A stretch of 52,452 nt of DNA from Escherichia phage EcoM1. The notes beneath the pieces are model-generated. The model did not search any database, had not been told where the DNA came from, and worked only from the letters and a program-made list of their open reading frames with translations. Location of the stretch: sequence record PQ818760.1; one strand, 5' to 3'. Position numbers and translations under genes: made by a program. Positions 1 to 49,270 of this stretch are shown piece after piece (positions within the stretch are counted from its first letter, which is position 1; the number at the start of each line of letters is the position of its first letter).

Positions 1-1395
1 CTATAGAGTTGAGACTTGTTCATTTGACAGCGCATTGTCCCAAATACGAAGGGACCGTACAGCAAACTCTGCCCTTGTAATGGCAGAAGATTTGGTCCAC
101 GTCGATAGTGTTGGCCGACGGTTGTTGGAATCTATGCCTGGAATACTGTGCCTGGCCACAAGAACACCGTCAACAAATATTCTTGCAGTGGTGTCTGCCA
201 CTGTTACACAAATTCTGGACCATTTCCCGACAGTTGCGACAGCAGGACTAATAACCTTGGGAGTGTTTACAAGGACTCCTGACGGGTTTCGGTATCGCAG
301 AATGACGCCACCGTCAAAACATACGAGAACCTTCAAGGTTTCCATACCAAAGCCAAATTGCCAGTTACCATCCGCACCATCTTGAACAATCTTCGTATAG
401 TCTACACATATCGTGTACCTGGAACCATTCGACAATTGCGTATTGTTGAACCAGTTTATACCCGCAGAACCAACATCAGGAGATACAAAAGCCAGTGCCC
501 CACCAAGAGCCTCATTGTAGGCAGGTTCTGTTGCAAACGTATTGAAAATTCCAGCGCCACGAAGAATGTTTACAGACTTAATAAGCGACATTTCATATGC
601 CGGAAGTTCAACAGCATATCTCGGCTCTTGTGCTGCCTTCACATCTGGGAAGTTTAGTTCCGTAACAATATTAGACTTGCTCGAAGCAGTACCAGTTTCC
701 GCATTCCCTGTGGAATTATTGATGCCGAGGTAGTAGCTCCCATTACGAAGATACAATCCACCGTCATTAACAATCTGTGCAGTCTTAGAATCATTTAAGT
801 ACACAGTCGTGAAGGTTACTTCACCAGTGTATGCCCCACCAGTTACAGGAACAGCACCAACTTGAGTTGCAGTAAGTTTGTGTGGATTGTTGTAATCCGT
901 TACGTGTGCTTGAACCATTGCACGATAGTTGGCAACAATCGAATCAAGTTCGGATTTGTCATATGCACCAATTTGTGCAGCAGTTACTTTGTGCGGGTTT
1001 GTGGTTACATCTGCAATGTGCGCATTGATTGCTGCAACAATTGAGTCGTAATTTGCACGAGAAACTTGAATGGAGCTTGGACTCCACTGTGCAGAGTTCT
1101 CACTTGGGCGTAGTGTTTTGCTAGGGTTGGTGACAGTACAAACATAAATCGTTTTGTTTGTTTCGTCCCAAGCCAAACTACCAACGCCATAACTTACATC
1201 ACTGCCCCACTCAAAGATTCCACGTTCCGCTTGAGCAAGCATAGTGGTGTCAATCTTGTATTGCAGGTAGTTAAGAACCTGGTAAGTTGGTATCTCTGCA
1301 ACCCAGCCCTTGAGATATTTTGCATCGCCTGGGTCACGTCTTGCGACAGAGTTGTTTGAGGTCCAGACTCGGTTCAGTTTAGGACGAATTGCCAT
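1..1395 (-). CDS. tail fiber protein (distal fiber gene)
   Basis: Ends with TAG at window positions 1-3; ATG at 1393-1395 overlaps the upstream stop by 1 nt (track ORF extends to a TTG at 1464). Two NPHK(V/L)TA.Q(I/V)GA fibre-repeat-like motifs; last gene of the baseplate/fiber cluster. Call from context and motif only. Confidence 0.5.
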   Translation of the reverse strand: MAIRPKLNRVWTSNNSVARRDPGDAKYLKGWVAEIPTYQVLNYLQYKIDTTMLAQAERGIFEWGSDVSYGVGSLAWDETNKTIYVCTVTNPSKTLRPSENSAQWSPSSIQVSRANYDSIVAAINAHIADVTTNPHKVTAAQIGAYDKSELDSIVANYRAMVQAHVTDYNNPHKLTATQVGAVPVTGGAYTGEVTFTTVYLNDSKTAQIVNDGGLYLRNGSYYLGINNSTGNAETGTASSKSNIVTELNFPDVKAAQEPRYAVELPAYEMSLIKSVNILRGAGIFNTFATEPAYNEALGGALAFVSPDVGSAGINWFNNTQLSNGSRYTICVDYTKIVQDGADGNWQFGFGMETLKVLVCFDGGVILRYRNPSGVLVNTPKVISPAVATVGKWSRICVTVADTTARIFVDGVLVARHSIPGIDSNNRRPTLSTWTKSSAITRAEFAVRSLRIWDNALSNEQVSTL

Positions 1396-2543
1396 TATGG
1401 CCTCACTAACATTGATTGTTGATATGCGGTAAGAGTTGGGTAACAGGTAATTCTCTCGACCCAAACAGCAGAGGTGAATCCCATGTTTGTCAGTAGGGTT
1501 TCCATTGAAGTGTATCCAGCAGACGGAGCCTTTATGGACCTTGCTGTGATAAGATTTCCACCAGCATCTCTTCCGTACATGACGATTGACGTTGGGCAGG
1601 CAACATCAAAACCTTCGAAGGTTATTGTGTTGTCATCAACTTTAATCCCACCTTTGGGGTGAAATATTGGAGCATCCGACGTATTGATGGTCCACCCACG
1701 AGTTGACATGGCATCGTTGATAGATGTTTTCATGTTCATGTCGAGGTATGGTTGAGGCAGTGCGAACCTGTTTCCCCATCGGATTTGAAATTCCCAGTAA
1801 TTCAGTTCGGTCATCACTGGATATTCTTCACCACCAACTATGCTCCACAGAACATTGCCGAGTGCATCAATGGATAGAATCCTGTTACCTTCGCGCATCT
1901 CAATTCTACCATTTCCTGGGTTCATTCGGATTGAGATGTTTGTTTTAAACTTCATCCCACCAAGCAGTGACACTGGTCCAGAGAACTTACCGCCAGATGT
2001 TGGCAGTGTACCAAGCTGTTGAGGAGTTTCTTGGTGAACACGTCCAGTTTGCAGCTTGTGGTATACAATAGTTCTTGGGTCTGTTTTACTCCCAAAGGCA
2101 TCATCAATGGCAGACTTGTTGTAAGTCTTGTTTACTATAGTATCTACAGTATCCTTGTGTGGGTTGGTTGCAGCCAAGTGCCCATCGTAAATGGACTTCA
2201 AGTTGCTAATGTCATTAAGGTAATCAACCTTCTTAAGATTAAGTACCTCTTCCCAACCTGTGGCAGTATTAACACGAATAACACCATTAAGGGAAGACAC
2301 TGCACCAACCTGGTAGGTCACACTGGAATCAAACTCGGCGATACCACTAAACAAGAGCGAGATAATCTTCAAGTCACTAATCTGCGACAAGAAGTTTTGC
2401 CACTCGTTAGGTGGCTTCTCAACTTCCCAACCTAAGTCGGCATATCTGTTTTCGATAAAACTTGGTGCAGAGGTGTCCAAGTCCGGGTCTTTAACTTCAC
2501 CATCTTGCGCCCAGGGAAAATTAAACTTAAGACGTTGTGTCAT
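1395..2543 (-). CDS. tail fiber protein (proximal fiber gene)
   Basis: 382 aa; ATG overlaps upstream stop at 2543; has an ATNPHKDT motif like the next gene; sits after the J-like and I-like baseplate genes. Confidence 0.45.
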   Translation of the reverse strand: MTQRLKFNFPWAQDGEVKDPDLDTSAPSFIENRYADLGWEVEKPPNEWQNFLSQISDLKIISLLFSGIAEFDSSVTYQVGAVSSLNGVIRVNTATGWEEVLNLKKVDYLNDISNLKSIYDGHLAATNPHKDTVDTIVNKTYNKSAIDDAFGSKTDPRTIVYHKLQTGRVHQETPQQLGTLPTSGGKFSGPVSLLGGMKFKTNISIRMNPGNGRIEMREGNRILSIDALGNVLWSIVGGEEYPVMTELNYWEFQIRWGNRFALPQPYLDMNMKTSINDAMSTRGWTINTSDAPIFHPKGGIKVDDNTITFEGFDVACPTSIVMYGRDAGGNLITARSIKAPSAGYTSMETLLTNMGFTSAVWVERITCYPTLTAYQQSMLVRP

Positions 2544-3184
2544 TATTTCTCCGGAGGATAATCTTTGGAACCATAAACCAAGGCAATATTACCTCCAGCA
2601 TCTCTGAGGGTAATCTTGACACCAACAGGTTTAAAGTTTGGAAGCATGTGCGCCATAAGAACTTTCTCAGGTACAGACAACATTTCATGAACAACATAAT
2701 CCATTGTCTGAAATCCTTCTATGATTTGAAGTTTCAGTTCCCTTCCCACAACCAACTCAATGTACATGATGATTTGTTCGATGGTGCAGTTGCCAGTTAT
2801 CTTAATGATTCGGGCACGTATTGCAGCCTTCAACTGTGCATCTGTTCGAACAAAGTCCCCAGAGTCCCTGTCGTAGTCTGATTTCAGAATACCACCAACA
2901 TTTGGGTTATTGTCATCACCAGCAGAGAATGCACCTGGGTTGGCATAGAAGCCAAAGTACCCAAGTGCTGCGGCACCATGTATTACGCGAGAAGCCCCTA
3001 CAAGATATGCAAGGTCGTCAACCATGATGCCGAATGAGTCTGCTAAGTATCTGTACTTGATTGAGTCAGCCATGGCCTTCTTAACTTCTGCAAACTCTTC
3101 CAAGAAGATGGAGATATATTTGCGTAAGTTTGGTGAAAGTGCATACTGCGAAAGCAGCATGTCTAAGCCATGTTTACCAGCCAT
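2543..3184 (-). CDS. baseplate protein, tail-protein-I-like
   Basis: 213 aa directly downstream of the J-like gene, the position of gpI-type proteins in P2/Mu-like baseplate clusters. Positional inference. Confidence 0.4.
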   Translation of the reverse strand: MAGKHGLDMLLSQYALSPNLRKYISIFLEEFAEVKKAMADSIKYRYLADSFGIMVDDLAYLVGASRVIHGAAALGYFGFYANPGAFSAGDDNNPNVGGILKSDYDRDSGDFVRTDAQLKAAIRARIIKITGNCTIEQIIMYIELVVGRELKLQIIEGFQTMDYVVHEMLSVPEKVLMAHMLPNFKPVGVKITLRDAGGNIALVYGSKDYPPEK

Positions 3185-3185
3185 A

Positions 3186-4343
3186 TTATACTGTCACATC
3201 TGTGTAAGTTATGTTTGCAGCAACGCCACGAGCACGCTTATCAATATCCAAATCAATGGTTGCTGTTCCAGATGGGCTTGGAGCAATACCAATAAATAAT
3301 GAATCAATTTCAAGCGACTGTGTTGCAGCCATGATTGGAGCAAACATGTTAGACCATACCACACTCTGACCTGGTTGCAGGGAGTTGAGGTAGTTAACAG
3401 TTGCTTCGGTTAACTGACGAATAGCATCGTTAGAACTCAGGTTGGCATTTGCACGGCGACGGAACGTACCTTTGACATAAATGTCTGTGTAAGTTGGTCG
3501 GCTGAAATGAATATCGTGCGGATAGCCTTTCGAGTCTGTAACAGTGATTGTGATATCGCCATGTGTCGGAACACCGCCAGTCTTGGCGTTGTAGATTCGA
3601 CGTGCAATATCATTGCTAGTGCCGCCATCAACTACAACAAATACAGTGCCCGAAGGCTGACTGCCAATAGGAGAGCCGGTATCATTATCACGAACACGAA
3701 TGTAATCAATATCGAGGTCAGCGAGTGAAGCATAGATTGCTTCGACTGTGGCTGTGCTACTGACTGCCGTAGTCCTTTCTCGACGTGCACGGAGTTGTGG
3801 GTCCGGTTCATAGTTAATACCAGTTTCTCCAGCTGTTTCGTTGTTGACAGAAGTCCAACCAGCAACAGGAGTTACGATTTTGTTGATGGAGTTTGGTGCG
3901 ATGTAATACTCGCCAGCTTCTTCTGCGATAACAGTTACGTCACCTGGAAGTGTTACGTCTGTATCAAGAGTGAAGCGCATGGTTCCGTCAGTTACAACAG
4001 AGCCAGCAGGTACAACAGTACCTGAATCACCACTGCACAAAACAGTTGCCTGTGAAGGCTTGTCAACATATCGAACAGTGTTTGTTAATTCGCAAATGTT
4101 GTCCAACCCAATACCAGATACAGCACCAGGACGGAAGGCGTTAAACACTTGTTCGGCCTGTTCCCAGCACGAGGCTATTTCGTCGGCCATGATTCCGATA
4201 TATTGCCCATCAGGAGATTCTGGACTTATGTCAAAGTTGGAACCAAATGCGGCAATAAATTTGTTATTGAGGTTAGCTACAACGTCGGCCACAGGCTTGC
4301 GAACAAAGCCATTCTCTGTTACGCCGTATTGGATTGTTGCCAT
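3186..4343 (-). CDS. baseplate J-like protein
   Basis: 385 aa, size and position between the W-like and I-like genes typical of baseplate J/gp6 family. Not confirmed by search. Confidence 0.5.
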   Translation of the reverse strand: MATIQYGVTENGFVRKPVADVVANLNNKFIAAFGSNFDISPESPDGQYIGIMADEIASCWEQAEQVFNAFRPGAVSGIGLDNICELTNTVRYVDKPSQATVLCSGDSGTVVPAGSVVTDGTMRFTLDTDVTLPGDVTVIAEEAGEYYIAPNSINKIVTPVAGWTSVNNETAGETGINYEPDPQLRARRERTTAVSSTATVEAIYASLADLDIDYIRVRDNDTGSPIGSQPSGTVFVVVDGGTSNDIARRIYNAKTGGVPTHGDITITVTDSKGYPHDIHFSRPTYTDIYVKGTFRRRANANLSSNDAIRQLTEATVNYLNSLQPGQSVVWSNMFAPIMAATQSLEIDSLFIGIAPSPSGTATIDLDIDKRARGVAANITYTDVTV

Positions 4344-5505: not shown

Positions 5506-5839
5506 TAATGAACAGGTAGAGTTGTCTGTAGCTTGTTACTTCTTCACCAGGGAATACTGTGTTAGCTGCATACATGTTTGGTAGCGGAGTTTTGTACTGC
5601 TTAAGGATATTAATTCCACATCGAATTGGGATGCCGAATATCTTATCCGTTGCTCCCCAAGCCAAGTCAAACATGTAGCAGTTTAAGTATTCGTTTAAAT
5701 ACAGTGCAGACATTTTAACTGTCACACCATTAAATTCAAACGAAACATCCTTACTTATATTGTAAGGAACACTCTTCACATATCCGGTAGGCAGAAGTTC
5801 AGCAATCTGTTTTAGAGCTTGATGTTCCTGCTCAATCAT
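5477..5839 (-). CDS. tail/baseplate assembly protein
   Basis: 120 aa in the translationally coupled baseplate cluster; no recognisable motif. Confidence 0.3.
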   Translation of the reverse strand: MIEQEHQALKQIAELLPTGYVKSVPYNISKDVSFEFNGVTVKMSALYLNEYLNCYMFDLAWGATDKIFGIPIRCGINILKQYKTPLPNMYAANTVFPGEEVTSYRQLYLFIIDESVLERG

Positions 5840-6723
5840 AGGATACGTCCCTTGATAGAAGAAAGCGGAGAAGCAAGTTTACTCAACTTACCTTTCAAGT
5901 TGGATAACTGTTTGGTTGGAGGAGTGCCAAGAGCACCGAGTCCTGGGAGTGGAACACCTCCAAGAACACCCATACCCAAACTTTGAGCAACCTTCGCAAA
6001 TTCAGAATAATCAGACATTGATTCCATTGCCTTACGAGCTTCACTGGCAAGAACATCTTCACCTACTGTCTGCAATTCTTCAAATAAGATTTCAACTGAC
6101 AACATTGCAGAAGTCATCTTATCATGTTTGGTTTTGATTGAGGTTACTACACAATTCAAATAAGGCCCAAGAATGGTGGAAATGTATAACTTCTGCCCCG
6201 TAACACGGAAGCTGTTAAACAAATCGTAGGTAGACTGGATTCGGTTGCTTGTTTCAAATGCAGAAGCAACGCCACCAGCAATTCCACCAAGGATTGGGAT
6301 GATTGGGCTATTGAAGATTGCGCCAGAAGCAACAGATAAGCCTTGTACAGATGCAGACCACATGGAGGAGTTCTGCATGTTGACAGCAACGGCAGTCAGC
6401 TTAAGCACCCTGTTCTGATTAATAACATGGTCACTAACCATGAAGCCAGAACTAACAGGGAACTTGGTTACGGTTGTTTCAGACGCATGTTCTTCACTAA
6501 CCATCGCATCAAATTTAAAAGAGTTAAAACTTTCGGTGGCAGCTTCACCAACAACAGGCAAGCTCTCAAGCGATTTCGCAAATCCACCAAACAGTCCAGA
6601 TTCCTCTTCCTTCTGAGATGCAGGTCCGTTGGACCACATAACAATAGATGGATGATGCCCGTAGCTGAAATTCTTCAAGCCTTTGGACACACCACCAATG
6701 AGGTCGGTATCAAAGATAGACAT
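5836..6723 (-). CDS. tail/baseplate hub-associated protein
   Basis: 295 aa, ATGA overlap with next gene; between tape measure and spike genes. Confidence 0.3.
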   Translation of the reverse strand: MSIFDTDLIGGVSKGLKNFSYGHHPSIVMWSNGPASQKEEESGLFGGFAKSLESLPVVGEAATESFNSFKFDAMVSEEHASETTVTKFPVSSGFMVSDHVINQNRVLKLTAVAVNMQNSSMWSASVQGLSVASGAIFNSPIIPILGGIAGGVASAFETSNRIQSTYDLFNSFRVTGQKLYISTILGPYLNCVVTSIKTKHDKMTSAMLSVEILFEELQTVGEDVLASEARKAMESMSDYSEFAKVAQSLGMGVLGGVPLPGLGALGTPPTKQLSNLKGKLSKLASPLSSIKGRIL

Positions 6724-7832
6724 TAAAATGACTCCATTGCCATTCCACTGTTAGCATACATTTCCTGCCACGCAGCTTCCTTACCACCCATCATTGTATT
6801 ACCACCCAATATTGCAGTGATTGATGTTTGATAAATGGTTGAGTGAGTCGAACCTTTATGCACAACTTCCATGATGAAGTATTTGTCTTCAACAGCCCAC
6901 CGGAATACAGATTGGTCTGTGTTAAGAACAATGCCTTCCCCTGAAACAGAGGTTACACCATTGGCAAGCAGTTCGTCTCCCAGCAAAGGAGATACATCAA
7001 GAATCATCCCTGGTTGGAAAGATGGGTTTAGGAATGTGTTTAAAGTATAGGTGCAGATTCCAGCAACAGGATTTCCAATAACTGAGTTGGCATCCAGCTT
7101 AACTGGCTCTCTGTCTTTGGACATTCTGTTTACTGCATCTTTATCACCAAAAGTGTCTGGGAATATTTGAACTTCACCAGTTGTAACAGTGTATAGCAAA
7201 TTATATTCGCCAAGCATGTTACGAAATTCATTCAAGAATGTGTCGTGAAACACACGCCCACGAGGCATTACTGTTTCAAGGACTGAATCTTCAACACCAA
7301 ATGTGGAGATGGTATTGAATCCATAGTCAGAACACATTGAGCGCATTGCATCAATGAGCTTGGTTCCAGGCTTGATTGCTGTCAGCTGTTTGAAATCAGT
7401 TGATGCACCATATGCCTTAGAAATACAGAACAATTGTGTTACGTGTTCAGGAGGCTTTCTGTAGCCAACTGCGTTTGTGATAATGCCAGAGAAGATGGTT
7501 GGCAGCGAGGTGGACACTGTTACGCGGTCACTCTGTTCAGCCTTTTGACCAAACTTCTTAACACCACCACTAGAAGTCCCGCCACCAGAATCGGAGCGTT
7601 CATCTTCTGCATACCCTGCACGAATTTCAATATACATATCTCCGTAGGACTTGTCTTGGAGGAACTTAACTTCTTCTAACGACAAGTTAAACAGAGTTAT
7701 GTTTGCTGTATCGGCGGGCCACCCAACAGTAGAACGGACTTCAAAATCAATACGATGTGATTTAAATACCGTCCGAATGCTTGGGTCTTCTTTACGTGAA
7801 ACTATTACTTCAACTCTGCGTAGCCACGGCAT
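6723..7832 (-). CDS. tail protein (hub or DNA-circulation-like)
   Basis: 369 aa, first gene after the tape measure gene; preceded by a promoter-like element and a terminator-like hairpin. Confidence 0.3.
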   Translation of the reverse strand: MPWLRRVEVIVSRKEDPSIRTVFKSHRIDFEVRSTVGWPADTANITLFNLSLEEVKFLQDKSYGDMYIEIRAGYAEDERSDSGGGTSSGGVKKFGQKAEQSDRVTVSTSLPTIFSGIITNAVGYRKPPEHVTQLFCISKAYGASTDFKQLTAIKPGTKLIDAMRSMCSDYGFNTISTFGVEDSVLETVMPRGRVFHDTFLNEFRNMLGEYNLLYTVTTGEVQIFPDTFGDKDAVNRMSKDREPVKLDANSVIGNPVAGICTYTLNTFLNPSFQPGMILDVSPLLGDELLANGVTSVSGEGIVLNTDQSVFRWAVEDKYFIMEVVHKGSTHSTIYQTSITAILGGNTMMGGKEAAWQEMYANSGMAMESF

Positions 7833-7857
7833 TGCGATATACCTATTGAAATTAATA

Positions 7858-7874
7858 CATATTCAACTAATGTA
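7858..7874 (-). promoter_or_regulatory. phage promoter-like element (variant copy)
   Basis: + strand catattcaactaatgta, a variant of the recurrent cacatccaactaatg element; ends 26 nt upstream of the ATG at 7832. Confidence 0.35.
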
Positions 7875-35121: not shown

Positions 35122-35200
35122 TTGTATATACCTTATATTGAATAGTTTTGCACGCCACGGTGACGTGACTTAGATAAAAATTAAAGAGCCTTTCTCTTTC

Positions 35201-35221
35201 CACATCCAACTAATGTTTCAG
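35201..35221 (-). promoter_or_regulatory. phage promoter-like element
   Basis: + strand cacatccaactaatgtttcag; gene-strand reading ctgaaACATTAGTTGGATGTG; 80 nt upstream of the ATG at 35121. Confidence 0.4.
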
Positions 35222-36699: not shown

Positions 36700-37422
36700 A
36701 GGAACTCTCCAATTTTCGATTCAATGTTTGTGACTTCTCTTCTCATCTTTTGGCCCAGGAACAGGCCACAGGGTAGCGCAGGAAGGCCGAAAATCGGGCC
36801 ACTGCCTACCGTTTGTGTCAATTCTGGATAACTGCATTGGTGAAGGGTTACTCCCGTTAGGGTGCGATACGCTAATCACATGAGTGTCGTCGCCTTGCGG
36901 CTCAGGCGTGTCACAGAGGCTTTGCAACCCTTCCCAATACATTCACCCAATCCACCTGCTTTGGCATAGCTGGTGGCGCGGTTTTGTGCGGATTATGCCA
37001 CTCTAAGCCCTGTTTGTCCGACTTCCTCAGAGCACCAGCGGCTTGTGGCACAAACCTATTTTCGAATGACTAACATAAGCATGAGGCATAACCCTCTAAT
37101 TATTCAGCCCTAACAGCTTGCTTATTTAGTTCCAATTCATCCCAATACATCGCCTATAACAAGTGAATAGCTTTTCTGCGAAGAAGTATTCCGGCCCTTT
37201 GGCCTATGTTAAAAGATAAATGTATATGATGGAAACATTCCATCGAAAATAACTTTGTAGAATGAGTCGAACATTCTCGCACGATGCGGCCGCAACGGTC
37301 TACCGAGTTACAAAGTTATTATCTGATGTTGTTTCTTCAATTCCAACTAATGTTTCAGAATTATTCCAATATTCCAAACAAAAAGAATAATAAGAATAAA
37401 TTAAAATAAATGAAGAAAGTGC

Positions 37423-41466: not shown

Positions 41467-41539
41467 GATTAAGATTCTCTTAAGTTAATTACAGTTTAAG
41501 TTTCAGCGACATTGCTAACCACGGAATAGCTTTGTCTCT

Positions 41540-41557
41540 CACATCCAACTAATGTTA
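41540..41557 (-). promoter_or_regulatory. phage promoter-like element
   Basis: + strand cacatccaactaatgtta, 74 nt upstream of the ATG at 41466. Confidence 0.4.
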
Positions 41558-45078: not shown

Positions 45079-45119
45079 TTCTGCTCTCCAAATTTGGAGG
45101 GTTTACTCCCCCCCCCGCA

Positions 45120-45338
45120 TTAAACTTCAATTGGCTCTTGAACTAAATCAGAGGCTGAGATTTCTTTAAACTCCTCCTCGGTAAAAGTTCTCTCATTGTC
45201 ATTTAATAAAACACCAATGTTAGAATCACCAACGAATACTGCATTTACATTAACATCATCTTCCAAAACTTTTTGCAGGTGTTCTCCACCACGCGTAAAG
45301 AAGATTGCACCATCTTCCAAATCTTTAAAACGAGTCAT
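45120..45338 (-). CDS. hypothetical early protein (first gene of the early array)
   Basis: 72 aa acidic protein; AGGAG 8 nt upstream of the ATG; preceded by a long inverted repeat. Confidence 0.4.
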   Translation of the reverse strand: MTRFKDLEDGAIFFTRGGEHLQKVLEDDVNVNAVFVGDSNIGVLLNDNERTFTEEEFKEISASDLVQEPIEV

Positions 45339-45360
45339 TTTATTCTCCTAAGTTAAAAGA

Positions 45361-45424
45361 ACTCCCTACAGAACGATTGTGGAGGTCTTGTCTTACCTCA
45401 ATCCACCTTAAAGTTGTAGGGAGT
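45361..45424 (-). promoter_or_regulatory. structured leader (10-bp inverted repeat with nested stem)
   Basis: ACTCCCTACA (45361-45370) pairs with TGTAGGGAGT (45415-45424); nested GAGGT/ACCTC stem inside; 23 nt upstream of the first early gene. Confidence 0.35.
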
Positions 45425-45531
45425 ATGTGACACAGCAAGTGCCGAAAAACTACAATGATTAGCTTGGAGACATAATCTCTCTAAAATCTGTCACACAATT
45501 TCAGCAGAATTTACAGAGATTTGGTCTTATT

Positions 45532-45548
45532 CACATGCAACTAATGAT
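45532..45548 (-). promoter_or_regulatory. phage promoter-like element (GCATGTG variant)
   Basis: + strand cacatgcaactaatgat; same as the recurrent element with c-to-g at one position. Confidence 0.3.
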
Positions 45549-46446
45549 AAATGGACATGCTTAATTGCAACTAACTCATCTGCCAAATAGACGAATTTTG
45601 TCACAATTAAACATGCATCATTAATTACAGGTTTGCTCCTATCTTGGAATGTATTTGGCACATCAAGAAGTGGCGCAATAGGTACGGAAAACCGACCATT
45701 TACAGCATAATAAAACTAATTAAATAAAGGGTTTTACCCCAATATTGTCACAATATTTACATGCGATGATAAAGCCTTCGCTTGGCTGGAAGCCAGTATT
45801 CATGCGGGTTGCAAGAATATTGGGTCAATACTGATACAGCTATTACATGCGAAATTGGCACAAATGTTGTTACAAAATTAACATGCCAGATTGGTAGACG
45901 ATTGTATCTTCGAGGTGATTAGTCCTCTAACAATTCTGCCACATTCCAACATGCCAATTTGTAGCAATATTTACATGCCATACTGCGACAATATTGTCAC
46001 AATATTTGTTGCTCAAAATCGGGGCGGGCTACGGGATTAGTTTCGATGCTTTGTCCGACTTCTTCTCTTCTTTCGAATTCTGATTGAAAGAAAGAAGCAT
46101 GTCCAAAAGTTCCAATATTACCAAAGTTATCTCCCGGCTTGTGGGTGGGCCTTTATAATAGGAGATGGAGCAATATTGAAACAAGTGGACATGCTGATTT
46201 GCTGACTTTCTTGTAACTTAATCAAGATGGCTAACACGATGTTCTGTTGTTAGTTCAGCACCGGAAGTAACAGTTTCGAATGATAATCCTACTTCACACA
46301 TGGTTGCTGGAACTTTGTCCGGCCAAAGACAGGGAGTTCAATGATTGCCACATCATTACAACACTGTATGTTTAGTTGACATGCTGAAATGTTTCTAGAA
46401 TGATTTCAACATGACATGCGGAATACTTCTCCGTATTCTGTTACTT

Positions 46447-46464
46447 CACATCCAACTAATGTCG
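46447..46464 (-). promoter_or_regulatory. phage promoter-like element
   Basis: + strand cacatccaactaatgtcg; coordinates anchored on the plus ORF starting at 46411. Confidence 0.35.
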
Positions 46465-46512
46465 AATATCGAGACAATATTACATGCAGCAATATTGTCT
46501 GAATATTGGGAA

Positions 46513-46680
46513 TCAGTTGAGCGTAGGCTTAACAACTTCATACTGCTTATCACCATCAGTGATTTCACAGTCTACATAGATATTCTCTTCACGAGCTGCA
46601 AACTTACGTGCTTCCTCTAAAGTCTCAAACTTCTCACAAACTGTTTTGCCGTAGTATGTAACGAGGTTAACTGCAAACAT
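46513..46680 (-). CDS. small protein (55 aa)
   Basis: Found by hand: GGAG 7 nt upstream of ATG at 46680, TGA at 46513-46515; a variant promoter-like element ends 29 nt upstream. Confidence 0.3.
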   Translation of the reverse strand: MFAVNLVTYYGKTVCEKFETLEEARKFAAREENIYVDCEITDGDKQYEVVKPTLN

Positions 46681-46708
46681 ATTATGCTCCAAATTGGTTT
46701 ATTAGATT

Positions 46709-46725
46709 CACATGCAACTAATGCC
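46709..46725 (-). promoter_or_regulatory. phage promoter-like element (GCATGTG variant)
   Basis: + strand cacatgcaactaatgcc, immediately after the polymerase stop and 29 nt upstream of the 55-aa ORF. Confidence 0.3.
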
Positions 46726-46743: not shown

Positions 46744-48684
46744 TTACTGACAGAAGTAGTAAGCGTGTTCGCTCATCAGCAACTCTTCTGTAACAATGTT
46801 CTCATGATACATCTGAATGCCACCAAGTTGCTTAGACAGATTCTCGAATTGATTGTTGGTTACAAAGATTTCAACATATGCTGCACGAATAACTTCCATC
46901 ATACGTGGAGCATCTGCCAGACAGCAACGGAAACAATCATGGATTGAAGTAAAGCCACGAAGACCAGCCTCTTTAGCTTTAACTGCAACAGTACGAGCAA
47001 CCAATGCGTCAATACCTTGAATGTAGTTAACAACGAAAGTACGCTTGAATTCTTCTTTAGTTGGATTGGATTCACGAATGGTCCAAGGCTTATTCTCCTG
47101 AATCTGGCCAAAGATAACACGAGTTTGAGAGTCAACACGAATGCTGAATGCCTCACAGATTTCACGAGATGGGAAGCAAGGCTTCATTACAACCTGACCA
47201 TCAGTGTGACGATATGTGATGTACTCTTTACCAAGTTCAACACAACGGTTGTATGCAGCATCAGCAGCCTTCTCAATGAACATGTTAATCTTAGCACCCA
47301 ATGCGTTATGGATTGCTTCTACACACAGTTCAGCAAATGCCTCAGCTTTCTCCATAGGAATCTGGAGCGCTTCTGTCATGTAGCTAATGAAGTCAGATGA
47401 ACCAGTTAATGCAGCTTTACCACCACCATATTGAATAGCCATGTACGGAGTTTTGATAAACTTACGACCAGCTTTCGGATTCAAGAATTCATCCATGATT
47501 TCAGGAGATGGTTTCATTGAAGAACGGTCTAATAACTTCAACAGTTCACGAAGAGATAACTGGTATGGGTCAGATGCTTTAGTCTCAGAATCAACCAGAC
47601 CTGTTGCACGAGCCATTTCCATGTTACCAGCAATGAATGCCAGATATTGAGTACCAGAACATTTAGCATCTAGGCCAAAGCCTACACGAGAATCGCACTC
47701 ACCTGTAGTCTCAAACTTGAACCAATCCAGAGCCAGACGAACATAAGTGAATGGCTTGGAAGGACGTTCAGCTTTAGGCATGTTCATCATGCGAGCAAGT
47801 GAACCAGCTGGATTCTGAGCAACATAAGTTAAACGCTTAGCAGTACACCATTCACCACCCGAAATATCTTCCAGCTCTGCCATGAACATGTTGTATGCAA
47901 TGGTAGTAGAACCATCTTCGTTAAACTTCTTAACGATGTTCTCAACATTGTGAGAATACAAGCAACGAGCAAAGTCAGATGATTGTGGGTTAGGACCAGC
48001 ACATGCTACATGATACAGACGACCACGGTTATCAGCAAAGTAGTCAGAGTACAGCTTATCCTGATTCATCATTGCTACAGCATTGTTCCAAACATGGAGT
48101 TCAGTCTGGATTGCTTCTGGCATCTGCAAGCCACCATAAGTACGTTGCTCAATCATGGACTGGATGATGCGAACCATCTCAGTCTCCACATGGTACTCAG
48201 TATCTTGCAGGAATTCGATTGCAGCTTTCAGAGTTTTGGATGGCTTAACTTTGCCACCTTTAACGAAAGGCTTGCGACGAGATTCAGATGTAACACGCTC
48301 AGTGAATGGCACTGCTGTGTCTTTGGTTGTAACCAGCTCAACCCATGTGTCAGTCTGTTGGAATGACTTGTCTTCGTTCATGGTGATGAAGCCAAAGTGC
48401 TTAGCCAGACCAATGAGGTTGATAGCTGGGTCAACATAGTGCATTGCTTTCAAATCGTTGTTATAACGGTTGGCATCAGCAATAGAAGCAGAAGCCAGCT
48501 CAACCATCGCGATGGCAGGAACAACGTCATCACGAGTGAAAGACGTCATCATCTTGAAGATGGCTAAGGCAGCAATAGCACAAGTCTGAGGCTGCATATA
48601 GTTCTGTTTCTCTTTGGCACGGTATACCAGAGCAGTGATAGCAGGAACAACGGATTTGATAGTTTGAGTAGTGATAGTAGTCAT
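46744..48684 (-). CDS. single-subunit DNA-dependent RNA polymerase (T7-type)
   Basis: 646 aa with the three catalytic motifs of T7-class polymerases: LDAKCSGTQYLAFIAG (T7 DGSCSGIQHF, motif A), KTPYMAIQYGGGK (T7 KRSVMTLAYGSK, O-helix K/Y), TSIHDCFRCC (T7 LIHDSFGT, motif C). Shorter than T7 RNAP (883 aa). ATG start with GGAG 9 nt upstream. Confidence 0.85.
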   Translation of the reverse strand: MTTITTQTIKSVVPAITALVYRAKEKQNYMQPQTCAIAALAIFKMMTSFTRDDVVPAIAMVELASASIADANRYNNDLKAMHYVDPAINLIGLAKHFGFITMNEDKSFQQTDTWVELVTTKDTAVPFTERVTSESRRKPFVKGGKVKPSKTLKAAIEFLQDTEYHVETEMVRIIQSMIEQRTYGGLQMPEAIQTELHVWNNAVAMMNQDKLYSDYFADNRGRLYHVACAGPNPQSSDFARCLYSHNVENIVKKFNEDGSTTIAYNMFMAELEDISGGEWCTAKRLTYVAQNPAGSLARMMNMPKAERPSKPFTYVRLALDWFKFETTGECDSRVGFGLDAKCSGTQYLAFIAGNMEMARATGLVDSETKASDPYQLSLRELLKLLDRSSMKPSPEIMDEFLNPKAGRKFIKTPYMAIQYGGGKAALTGSSDFISYMTEALQIPMEKAEAFAELCVEAIHNALGAKINMFIEKAADAAYNRCVELGKEYITYRHTDGQVVMKPCFPSREICEAFSIRVDSQTRVIFGQIQENKPWTIRESNPTKEEFKRTFVVNYIQGIDALVARTVAVKAKEAGLRGFTSIHDCFRCCLADAPRMMEVIRAAYVEIFVTNNQFENLSKQLGGIQMYHENIVTEELLMSEHAYYFCQ

Positions 48685-48752
48685 TTGTAAGTCTCCAAGA
48701 TTGTGTATGATTTAACTGAAACGGATTATAATAGCGTAGCCATTACACAATT

Positions 48753-48770
48753 CACTTCCAACTAATATCA
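48753..48770 (-). promoter_or_regulatory. phage promoter-like element upstream of the polymerase gene
   Basis: + strand cacttccaactaatatca, 69 nt upstream of the polymerase ATG; a TATAAT hexamer lies between it and the gene. Confidence 0.35.
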
Positions 48771-48909
48771 CAAACCTGTGCCATTGTTACAACAGCACGG
48801 AGACTTTGACCTTGACCTATAAGCGAAGCGCCTAACTTGGTGTTGTTTGAAAGCCGATAGGCTTTAGGAAAAAGTTGGGGTAGGGACCGTATTTTAAGTC
48901 CGATAGGAC

Positions 48910-49270
48910 GTTGGGCTTCCCCTCCTCGGAGATAAAAATTTTAAAATAATAATGTCACAACTTCCCCTCCTCGCTGGCCCAAAAATAAAAATTATAATTT
49001 TGCCACAATTCTAGTCTCATTAATATTGTAGCAATTTGAGTCTCATTAATTCCGTAACAATATTCGAAATAAAAAAAATTATATAAAAATTTTTATAACA
49101 TAGTCGGACTTCTGTTGTTACTTCGTAACGGGTTCGAACAAATTTCGGCTAGATACAGCTGACCGACCGTGAACGAATCTATATCCAGGTACAGTTGACC
49201 GACCATGTACCATTTGGTTTTGAACTTTACGCATTCCTAATATTACTTTAAATATTGTAGCAATATTGGG
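48910..49270 (-). repeat. AT-rich non-coding block with paired direct repeats
   Basis: Duplicated cttcccctcctcg (48916, 48961), (t/g)agtctcattaat (49012, 49038), ACAG(C/T)TGACCGACC(G/A)TG (49155, 49191), aatattgtagcaat (49022, 49251), and long A/T runs. Coordinates anchored on the polymerase start and the nrdB stop. Confidence 0.45.

Follow-up and report, generated by a model that had tools for sequence, protein, structure and literature searches.

What fills the gap of about 1 kb that follows the RNA polymerase gene in the genome of Escherichia phage EcoM1 (sequence record PQ818760.1; the analysed stretch of 52,452 nucleotides is hereinafter denoted the window)? A reading of this DNA without database searches, hereinafter the original prediction, had noted at 45520-46500 a block with no credible open reading frame (ORF) but with at least 12 copies of the hexamer ACATGC in the same orientation, and had considered a promoter cluster, a replication origin or an array of regulator-binding sites. 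The window belongs to a phiEcoM-GJ1/ST32-like myovirus of the family Chaseviridae, and the block is a non-coding region that is conserved and modular, forms hairpins and is located at the terminal-repeat edge, its modules being joined by a self-pairing hexamer. Because hexamer pairs close at least four hairpin modules, the block most likely is a structured non-coding transcript or a long leader in which the repeats are the paired ends of hairpins, a reading to which we assign a probability of about 0.5.

The hexamer array

Exactly 12 plus-strand copies of ACATGC are present in 45520-46500 (at 45533, 45555, 45611, 45759, 45845, 45881, 45949, 45973, 46189, 46379, 46414 and 46482), together with a single copy on the opposite strand (46097); a 13th plus-strand copy, at 46710, lies outside these limits. 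The remaining 51.5 kb of the window contain 10 plus-strand copies, which translates into 0.19 expected in the block (Poisson probability 4e-18), and when the block was shuffled 500 times with preservation of dinucleotides, the commonest hexamer never exceeded seven copies. The local enrichment and the orientation bias (12 plus-strand copies vs one on the minus strand) are real, as originally suspected; the (t/a)(t/a) prefix that had been included in the motif does not hold, being found in only 6 of the 12 copies. Because all genes are encoded in the minus strand, the motif is GCATGT in the gene sense. The distances between copies are irregular (22-228 nt), and the recurring values of 24, 36, 56 and 68 nt match the spans of hairpins.

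Hairpin modules closed by hexamer pairs

In the gene sense, 5'-GCAUGU-3' pairs with itself in the antiparallel orientation (G.U, C-G, A-U, U-A, G-C, U.G) whereas ACAUGC cannot, and self-pairing in the sense strand only explains both the near-palindromic core of the repeat and its strict single orientation. A scan with RNAalifold yielded consensus helices with hexamer-hexamer pairing, a possibility that the original prediction had not raised, and the hexamer pairs, lengthened by the TTGTGAC box that follows most of the copies, close at least four stem-loop modules, all described here on the minus strand. Compensatory pairing was assessed against two controls, namely shuffling of the 3' partners (500 times) and sliding of the partners by 1-3 columns.

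Module C (45548-45623; -28.8 kcal/mol in the sense strand) has a 17-bp stem (GCAUGUUUAAUUGUGAC/GUUGCAAUUAAGCAUGU) with the hexamers 45611-45616 and 45555-45560. In an alignment of 14 sequences from at least 7 genera (A1), 91.4% of the cells are paired compared to 77.5% after shuffling (0/500), with 37 compensatory cells against 11.5 expected (0/500), and slid partners gave 28-52%. The partner spacing stays at 55-61 nt while the intervening sequence diverges, and the inner hairpin combines a conserved loop, AUUUGGC, with an inner stem that reads UA, GC, CG or AU in different genera. Module B (45874-45961), the apex of which is a conserved island, TTAGAGGACTAATCACCTCGAAGAT, behaves in the same manner: in an alignment of 13 sequences (A2), 94.2% of the cells are paired vs 83.5% in shuffles (0/500) and 27-42% in the slid controls, and 12 pairs have changed on both sides vs 6.1 expected (0/500). 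The variable base of the box covaries with its partner (AU in 7 sequences, GC in 5, CG in 1), and the partner spacing (45954 to 45886; 68 nt in the window) is 67-69 nt everywhere. Module B is nested within a central domain (45838-45985), a hairpin with the rungs 45973-45978/45845-45850 and 45949-45954/45881-45886, and the outer rung (45978/45850) reappears around module B in the consensus of a third alignment (A3, 10 sequences).

Minimum-energy folds of 12 genomes, which do not depend on any alignment, recover module B in all 12 and module C in 11, with nested rungs, up to three, in 5 genomes. A covariance model of module B detects this module in 8 of the 8 sources from the subfamily Cleopatravirinae that were searched, at 73-100 bits, and also matches module C (27.6 bits, E 3e-4), so that modules B and C resemble each other.

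Two other modules are closed by hexamer pairs as well. Module D (46090-46202; -41.0 kcal/mol in sense, z -6.9) is a long hairpin in which the hexamer 46189-46194 is paired with the lone inverted copy (46097-46102) and the apex is formed by a near-invariant box, TCCTATTATAAAGGCCCACCCACAAGCCGGGA (46128-46160). Its inner hairpin presents UCCU[AUUAUAAA]GGC[CCACCCACAA]GCCGGGA and contains 2 covarying closing pairs among 12 sequences; the covariation recorded for this module is that of the inner hairpin, the outer stem being too gappy to score in the MAFFT alignment. Module A (46372-46426; -12.2 kcal/mol in sense) has arms with the hexamers 46414-46419 and 46379-46384, 35 nt apart; across genera, this spacing is 33-37 nt, and the inner stems differ yet stay complementary, the pairing in this case having been read by eye. 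A further hairpin on the minus strand, inverted repeat I2 (46453-46519; 29-nt arms, 79% complementary), carries the hexamer 46482-46487 in its apical loop; in Rfam, it gave just a weak match of the hairpin type.

Among known structured RNAs, the families in Rfam are comparable in that they have covariation-supported helices conserved across genera, but the block matches none of them at E values up to 1 except for a chance-level match to a microRNA hairpin (25.9 bits vs the gathering score of 98 bits). An analogy is provided by the RNase III processing hairpins in the intergenic regions of phage T7, such as R1.1 between genes 1 and 1.1. The irregular module stems of 17-20 bp are of the type that RNase III processes in T7: module C has the 17-bp stem and an inner helix of 9 bp, and modules B and D have composite stems of at least 16 bp. 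In both phages, irregular stem-loops of about two helical turns, predicted ones in the case of the block, lie in non-coding DNA directly downstream of the RNA polymerase gene and near promoters. In contrast to T7, which has one short site per gene gap, here at least 4 modules occupy about 1 kb with no genes in between and share the same invariant hexamer.

Strand preference

In the structures of modules B and C, there are 107 G.U cells against 10 A.C or C.A cells, whereas composition predicts a ratio of about 1.2 to 1. In the window, the z-scores are lower in the sense than in the antisense strand for module C (-5.8 vs -2.6), module B (-4.0 vs -2.2) and module A (-2.9 vs -0.5), and in PM1 and Myduc an unusual stability of the central domain is seen only for the sense strand. 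These strand facts favor sense-strand RNA.

The same hairpins could instead form in the sense strand of single-stranded DNA during replication or concatemer processing, where they could serve as primers for duplicating the terminal repeat or as signals for initiation on a single strand. Covariation fits this possibility equally well, as does the location at the boundary of the terminal repeat, and module D, which lies about 30 nt inside that boundary, folds well on both strands; a hairpin intermediate has indeed been proposed for the duplication of the T7 terminal repeat. Nevertheless, this explanation appears improbable because in DNA the hexamer helix would consist of two G.T mismatches around four Watson-Crick pairs and would be weak, because a strong predominance of G.U over A.C typically points to RNA, and because modules are found up to 500 nt from the boundary.

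We infer that the molecule concerned is RNA rather than single-stranded DNA. The proposed transcript would be about 0.9-1.1 kb long, its existence being suggested by the gene orientation and by promoter-like motifs upstream (P motifs, described below). Under this scenario, the phage RNA polymerase would make the transcript from the P motif or motifs located just downstream of its own gene, with a putative start at 46445-46461, and the transcript would cross the inner boundary of the left terminal repeat in the direction of the early genes. Candidate roles are RNase III processing, priming of replication and processing of the terminal repeat.

Gene context and promoter-like motifs

The region matches ST32 (94%), phiEcoM-GJ1 (90%) and about 60 further members of Chaseviridae, and all long ORFs of the window are in the minus strand. 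In the gene sense, the order is the polymerase gene, a 59-aa ORF, the non-coding block and the first small early gene, which starts at 45338. The polymerase gene adjacent to the block, which was part of the original prediction, is present, although its product is a single-subunit RNA polymerase (46744-48684, minus strand; 646 aa; Pfam PF00940, E 5.9e-18) and not a DNA polymerase; the homologs in ST32, GJ1 and Mangalitsa are annotated accordingly. The existence of about 1 kb without a conserved ORF was likewise borne out, and its extent had to be revised to about 45339-46512, given that the 59-aa ORF (46513-46692, minus strand; the equivalent of gp02 in GJ1 and ST32, present in the ORF list of the window and annotated in GJ1, Mangalitsa and ST32) intervenes between the block and the polymerase gene. 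The block is mostly left blank in hand-curated records, and no tRNA genes were found in the window.

A motif with the consensus CATTAGTTG(G/C)ATGTGAA (CATTAGTTGCATGTGAA), denoted the P motif, has 8 matches in the window with at most 3 mismatches, compared to 0.34 expected, all of them intergenic, in the gene strand and 23-190 nt upstream of start codons. The fuller form is (a)aCATTAGTTG(G/C)ATGTGAAg, and the matches on the minus strand are at 7856-7872, 35199-35215, 37336-37352, 41538-41554, 45530-45546, 46445-46461, 46707-46723 and 48751-48767; at least one is placed immediately after a terminator-like hairpin. On these sequence grounds, the P motif is the obvious candidate for the promoter of the phage polymerase. 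Eight phage promoters were predicted in the PP101 paper as well, where the block is undescribed.

Three P motifs are located in the block or at its edges. The one at 46707-46723 (CATTAGTTGCATGTGAA; minus strand) includes the ACATGC copy 46710 and lies 26 nt upstream of the 59-aa ORF; the one at 46445-46461 (minus strand), a GGATGT variant, is the 'putative phage promoter 1' of GJ1 and is followed by a conserved hairpin, GAATACGGAGAAGTATTC; and the one at 45530-45546 (minus strand), with the ACATGC copy 45533, is 'putative phage promoter 2' of GJ1, about 190 nt upstream of the first early gene. The proposal that two copies are full variants of a promoter-like element has thus been confirmed, the copies being 45533 and 46710. 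The parallel with T7 in gene order also stands: in both phages, the polymerase gene is followed by two phage promoters.

Whether the other copies belong with these promoters is a separate issue. P motifs account for 2 of the 13 ACATGC copies (and for one GGATGT variant besides); CATTAGTT is missing from the remaining 11, which are confined to the block. The hexamer position of the P motif is GGATGT in most copies, not GCATGT. The 11 copies share a context of their own of about 30 nt, GCATGT-N4/5-TTGTGACAATATT, in which a near-palindromic box, AATATTGTGACAATATT, sits at a fixed distance of 4-5 nt after the hexamer. Accordingly, the suggestion that the remaining copies are degenerate promoter half-sites was abandoned: they have their own context, lack CATTAGTT, and none is found elsewhere upstream of genes.

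A promoter (or half-site) cluster serving the phage RNA polymerase, which would drive early transcription or pull the genome into the cell, might still be envisaged given the three P motifs and the fact that every copy points in the gene direction. Moreover, the three best-conserved copies, TGGCATGT, resemble the 3' half of the P motif, TTG(G/C)ATGT; the box ATTGTGACAATATTG agrees with the core of the SP6 promoter, GTGACACTATAG, at 10 of 12 positions when aligned by hand; and the best composite element, GCATGT+AAATATTGTGACAATATT (45741-45764, minus strand), is followed by GGGG/GGGA. We nevertheless regard a promoter cluster as quite improbable because, unlike the P motif, the composite element and the box are upstream of no middle or late gene, the upstream half of the P motif (CATTAGTT) is missing from the copies, and several boxes are perfect palindromes; furthermore, covariation is unexpected for promoters. 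The resemblance to SP6 has to be viewed in light of the polymerase itself, which is only remotely related to T7 RNA polymerase (phmmer against the Protein Data Bank, E 0.003, with the alignment confined to motifs A and C) and has a region preceding the palm that is about 200 aa shorter; given this remoteness and the shorter N-terminal region, the promoter-recognition rules of T7 and SP6 may not carry over.

Bacterial regulatory sites do not account for the block either. Sigma-70 promoters (-35 and -10 elements with 16-18-nt spacing) number 7 in the block vs 5.8 +/- 3.0 in shuffles and are mostly in the non-gene strand. Sigma-54 sites and operators resembling those of CRP, LacI and TyrR were rejected because the scan was at chance level and comparison with the consensus sequences by eye showed misfits in spacing.

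Conservation across genera

Following the polymerase gene, or the small ORFs that trail it, a gap of 1.1-1.6 kb is found in all genera examined. In the representatives of Cleopatravirinae that were counted (Carltongylesvirus, Sabourvirus, Suwonvirus, Loessnervirus, Myducvirus and one Aeromonas phage), it contains 8-14 co-oriented GCATGT and at most 2 in the opposite orientation. The copies keep their positions in at least 7 genera: in an alignment of 7 genera, the hexamer columns are 88% identical to the window compared to 56% for the other, neighboring columns, and three copies are exact in 6 of 6 other phages. A logo built from 61 instances in 6 genera (positions -6 to +24) reads AAtt..GCATGT.Aww.TTGt.aCAA..TT. 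Small conserved ORFs, which the original prediction had pointed to as the observation that would speak against the repeats, are not behind this conservation, since no ORF over the repeats keeps its length or frame across genera. This candidate was rejected after an all-against-all comparison of ORFs (25 aa or longer, from 7 genera) in which the matches only mirrored the conservation of the DNA.

Beyond the family, the block appears to have no counterpart: no match was obtained among 5,426 Escherichia coli genomes and 72,556 plasmids, and in IMG/VR the composite pattern is confined to Chaseviridae contigs of about 52 kb. Over the block and the polymerase gene, an identity of about 89% is shared with a record named 'Staphylococcus phage Pel53' (PP952070.1), whose stated host, S. 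hyicus, is probably erroneous or the result of contamination.

In the sister subfamily, Nefertitivirinae, in which the polymerase is about 34% identical, the same gap contains a different co-oriented hexamer, GTGTGA in the Shewanella phage Spp001 (8:0) and GTATGA in pAh6-C (7:0) and BUCT696 (6:0), in each case with more copies than in all 500 shuffles. These hexamers are part of no promoter-like motif and are absent from the other intergenic regions of these phages, a further argument against a promoter cluster; in Spp001, k-mer counts revealed no promoter-like motif either genome-wide or in intergenic regions. The Nefertitivirinae arrays of GTATGA/GTGTGA are in part spaced at 12-14 nt. The blocks themselves (5774-7079, 5642-6765 and 5765-6647) also contain tandem hairpin-like GGCTCT(T/A)CGAGCC units followed by CACAAG, at a spacing of about 30 nt. 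A CCACAAG core and a TCGAAGA heptamer are common to these blocks and the conserved boxes of the window despite the 34% identity of the polymerases.

Position relative to the terminal repeat

Five independent determinations of genome ends place both boundaries of the direct terminal repeat at homologous positions: the PhageTerm repeats of Mangalitsa (1-3234), 4HA13 (1-3120) and Myduc (1-3202), and the records of PM1 and Y2, which hold both copies of the repeat (2665 and 2608 bp, respectively). Projected onto the window, the inner (right) boundary of the left repeat is at about 46053-46062, near gaagTC|GGACaaa, and the left end of the genome is at about 48897-48900, at cctaTCGGAC|TTAAAATACGG. 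From these boundary positions, it follows that the repeat, of about 2.8 kb, includes the polymerase gene and that its inner end falls midway through the block. The published repeat of PYps23T is an outlier, with 2339 bp and both ends within P motifs (..ATTAGTTGGA|YGTGAA); this discrepancy could be explained by template switching during PCR, by nicks or by a genuine difference among the phages.

The hexamers are unevenly divided by the inner boundary: 2-5 are inside the repeat and 7-10 in the first 500-600 bp or so of unique DNA, with the array on the unique side beginning 67-90 nt past the boundary in the window, 4HA13, PM1, Y2 and Myduc. TCGGAC is present at both boundaries (48898-48903 and 46053-46058), although it is too common to specify a cut alone. 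Another non-coding region (48948-49267, minus strand), which lies immediately beyond the left end of the repeat, contains the same TTGYNRCAATATT boxes and no GCATGT; the box without the hexamer is found almost nowhere else in the genome, and boxes flank both ends of the repeat in three genera (the window, 4HA13 and Myduc). A perfect 17-nt palindrome, AATATTGTSACAATATT (45990-46006), is also a box and lies about 46 nt outside the boundary of the repeat. As a separate observation, the nearest TTGTGACA box is about 45 nt outside each repeat boundary. The best composite element is followed by the tract with the highest AT content in the block (45689-45749, 77.5% AT).

Several findings weigh against a structured transcript. 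The hexamers never covary but are invariant, including the G.U ends, so that pairing alone does not explain them, and such invariance suggests that the sequence itself is recognized as well. In Nefertitivirinae, the hexamers lack self-complementarity and no match to the covariance model of module B was obtained; pairing is therefore demonstrated for Cleopatravirinae only. Boxes devoid of hexamers at the other end of the repeat point to a role at the DNA level that is tied to the repeat. The extended central domain and module D fold about equally well on both strands; furthermore, because control coding regions are likewise more stable in the sense strand, the overall asymmetry is compositional, and the overall sense vs antisense energy was dropped as evidence. 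Finally, the assignment of promoters is a prediction, and the ICTV profile of the family describes its promoters as unidentified.

An alternative is that the repeats are an array of protein-binding sites in double-stranded DNA that marks the junction between repeat and unique DNA, such that a phage protein (the small subunit of the terminase, an initiator or the polymerase) directs the cutting of ends, the duplication of the repeat or the initiation of replication. Consistent with such an array are the repeat boundary within the block, the concentration of copies soon after the cut in each genus, the boxes at the other boundary, TCGGAC at both (with the reservation given above), the invariance of the hexamers, the non-self-complementary arrays at the same place in Nefertitivirinae, and the AT-rich tract after the best element. 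Binding to double-stranded DNA, however, predicts no compensatory changes, no G.U-for-A-U substitutions and no conservation of partner spacing, all of which are observed; the spacing of copies is irregular and not iteron-like; the other flank of the repeat carries no hexamers; and no candidate binding protein or initiator was identified. We consider such an array a possible but clearly unlikely explanation.

A close parallel in position is the left end of the T7 genome, where a 160-bp repeat and the ATCTGTT site (a class II pause or terminator site at the concatemer junction, CJ) are followed by 12 co-oriented copies of (CC)TAAAG right after the repeat, at nt 175-361, and then by promoters, with phage promoters also after gene 1; related repeats are found at the other flank of the T7 repeat as well. 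Both cases involve a phage with a single-subunit RNA polymerase and co-oriented short repeats on the unique side of the left repeat. The differences are substantial: the T7 units have a period of about 13 nt and are not self-complementary, whereas here hairpin spans determine the spacing, the repeat is about 2.8 kb long and includes the polymerase gene, the hexamers are at one flank, and ATCTGTT is missing from the block. The T7 array presumably is the one known as SRL.

With respect to replication, the primary origin of T7 lies just after gene 1, and iterons are 17-22-bp units that recur regularly, every 22 bp or so, and are recognized in double-stranded form. The block shares with these origins the co-oriented repeats beside an AT-rich tract and the position after gene 1. 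It differs from iteron origins in the irregular spacing and in that the repeats covary as paired partners. The block shows no enrichment of DnaA, IHF, Fis or Chi sites, nor of ATCTGTT, the class II pause signal of T7. An origin, one of the functions considered originally, may still lie here.

The injection-stop region of phage T5 is another possible parallel. This region is untranslated, is located inside the left terminal repeat, contains 8 ordered DnaA boxes along with repeats, inverted repeats and palindromes, and is conserved in relatives of T5. By analogy, the repeat with the polymerase gene would enter the cell first and entry would pause at the block until the polymerase is made. The likeness consists in a large, untranslated, repeat-rich region toward the inner end of a long terminal repeat that, in the present case, carries one large early gene. 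In contrast to T5, ordered DnaA boxes are absent (1 DnaA-like box vs 1.4 expected), most of the elements are outside the repeat, and two-step entry has no support in this family, which makes an injection stop the least probable of the explanations discussed here.

A structured transcript thus remains the reading that we prefer, and it can be extended to the repeat boundary, although rather speculatively and with the odds well against it. In such an extension, a structured RNA of about 1 kb found throughout the subfamily would act in cis at the repeat boundary, the two-fold-symmetric GCAUGU:GCAUGU helices being recognized by a dimeric factor, and would either prime replication, as at the T7 and ColE1 origins, or couple transcription to the cutting and duplication of the repeat. 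For phages with long direct terminal repeats, the mechanism of cutting and duplication is, to our knowledge, still unsolved.

The transcription signals and the formation of ends in Chaseviridae are officially unknown; these phages are widely isolated and are candidates for phage therapy and biocontrol (of E. coli, Erwinia, Pectobacterium, Yersinia and Proteus). The gap of 1 kb is now a defined object: its modules have coordinates, its self-pairing hexamer is invariant, and the repeat boundary within it is firmly placed. No description of a structured block was found in the literature on the family that was covered, the original GJ1 and Y2 papers lying outside that coverage. If the block acts as RNA, it would be a new conserved phage RNA without an Rfam family, for which the paired mutations can be specified site by site; if it acts as DNA, it would provide a tractable model for the cutting and duplication of long direct terminal repeats and would bear on the repeats beside the terminal repeat of T7, which have never been explained.

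Additional sequence features

Several further repeats and potential structures were noted near the ends of the repeat and in the early region. The segment that precedes the left end of the genome (48898-49384) contains a 26-nt tandem repeat (49005-49061), two copies of GAGGAGGGGAAG (48915-48985) and two copies of GGTCGGTCARCTGTA (49150-49205); within the block, positions 45681-45699 hold a related sequence, ATGGTCGGT..GTACC. In the leader of the first early gene (45365-45425), a 10-bp stem (ACTCCCTACA ... TGTAGGGAGT) surrounds a second helix, with the outer arms kept in Escherichia phages, and a conserved TTYGGCAC..GTGTCACAT is located just upstream of this stem. The short gap between the first and second early genes contains nine consecutive C residues (G on the gene strand) at 45108-45116, a tract that could be prone to slippage or sensitive to sequencing.

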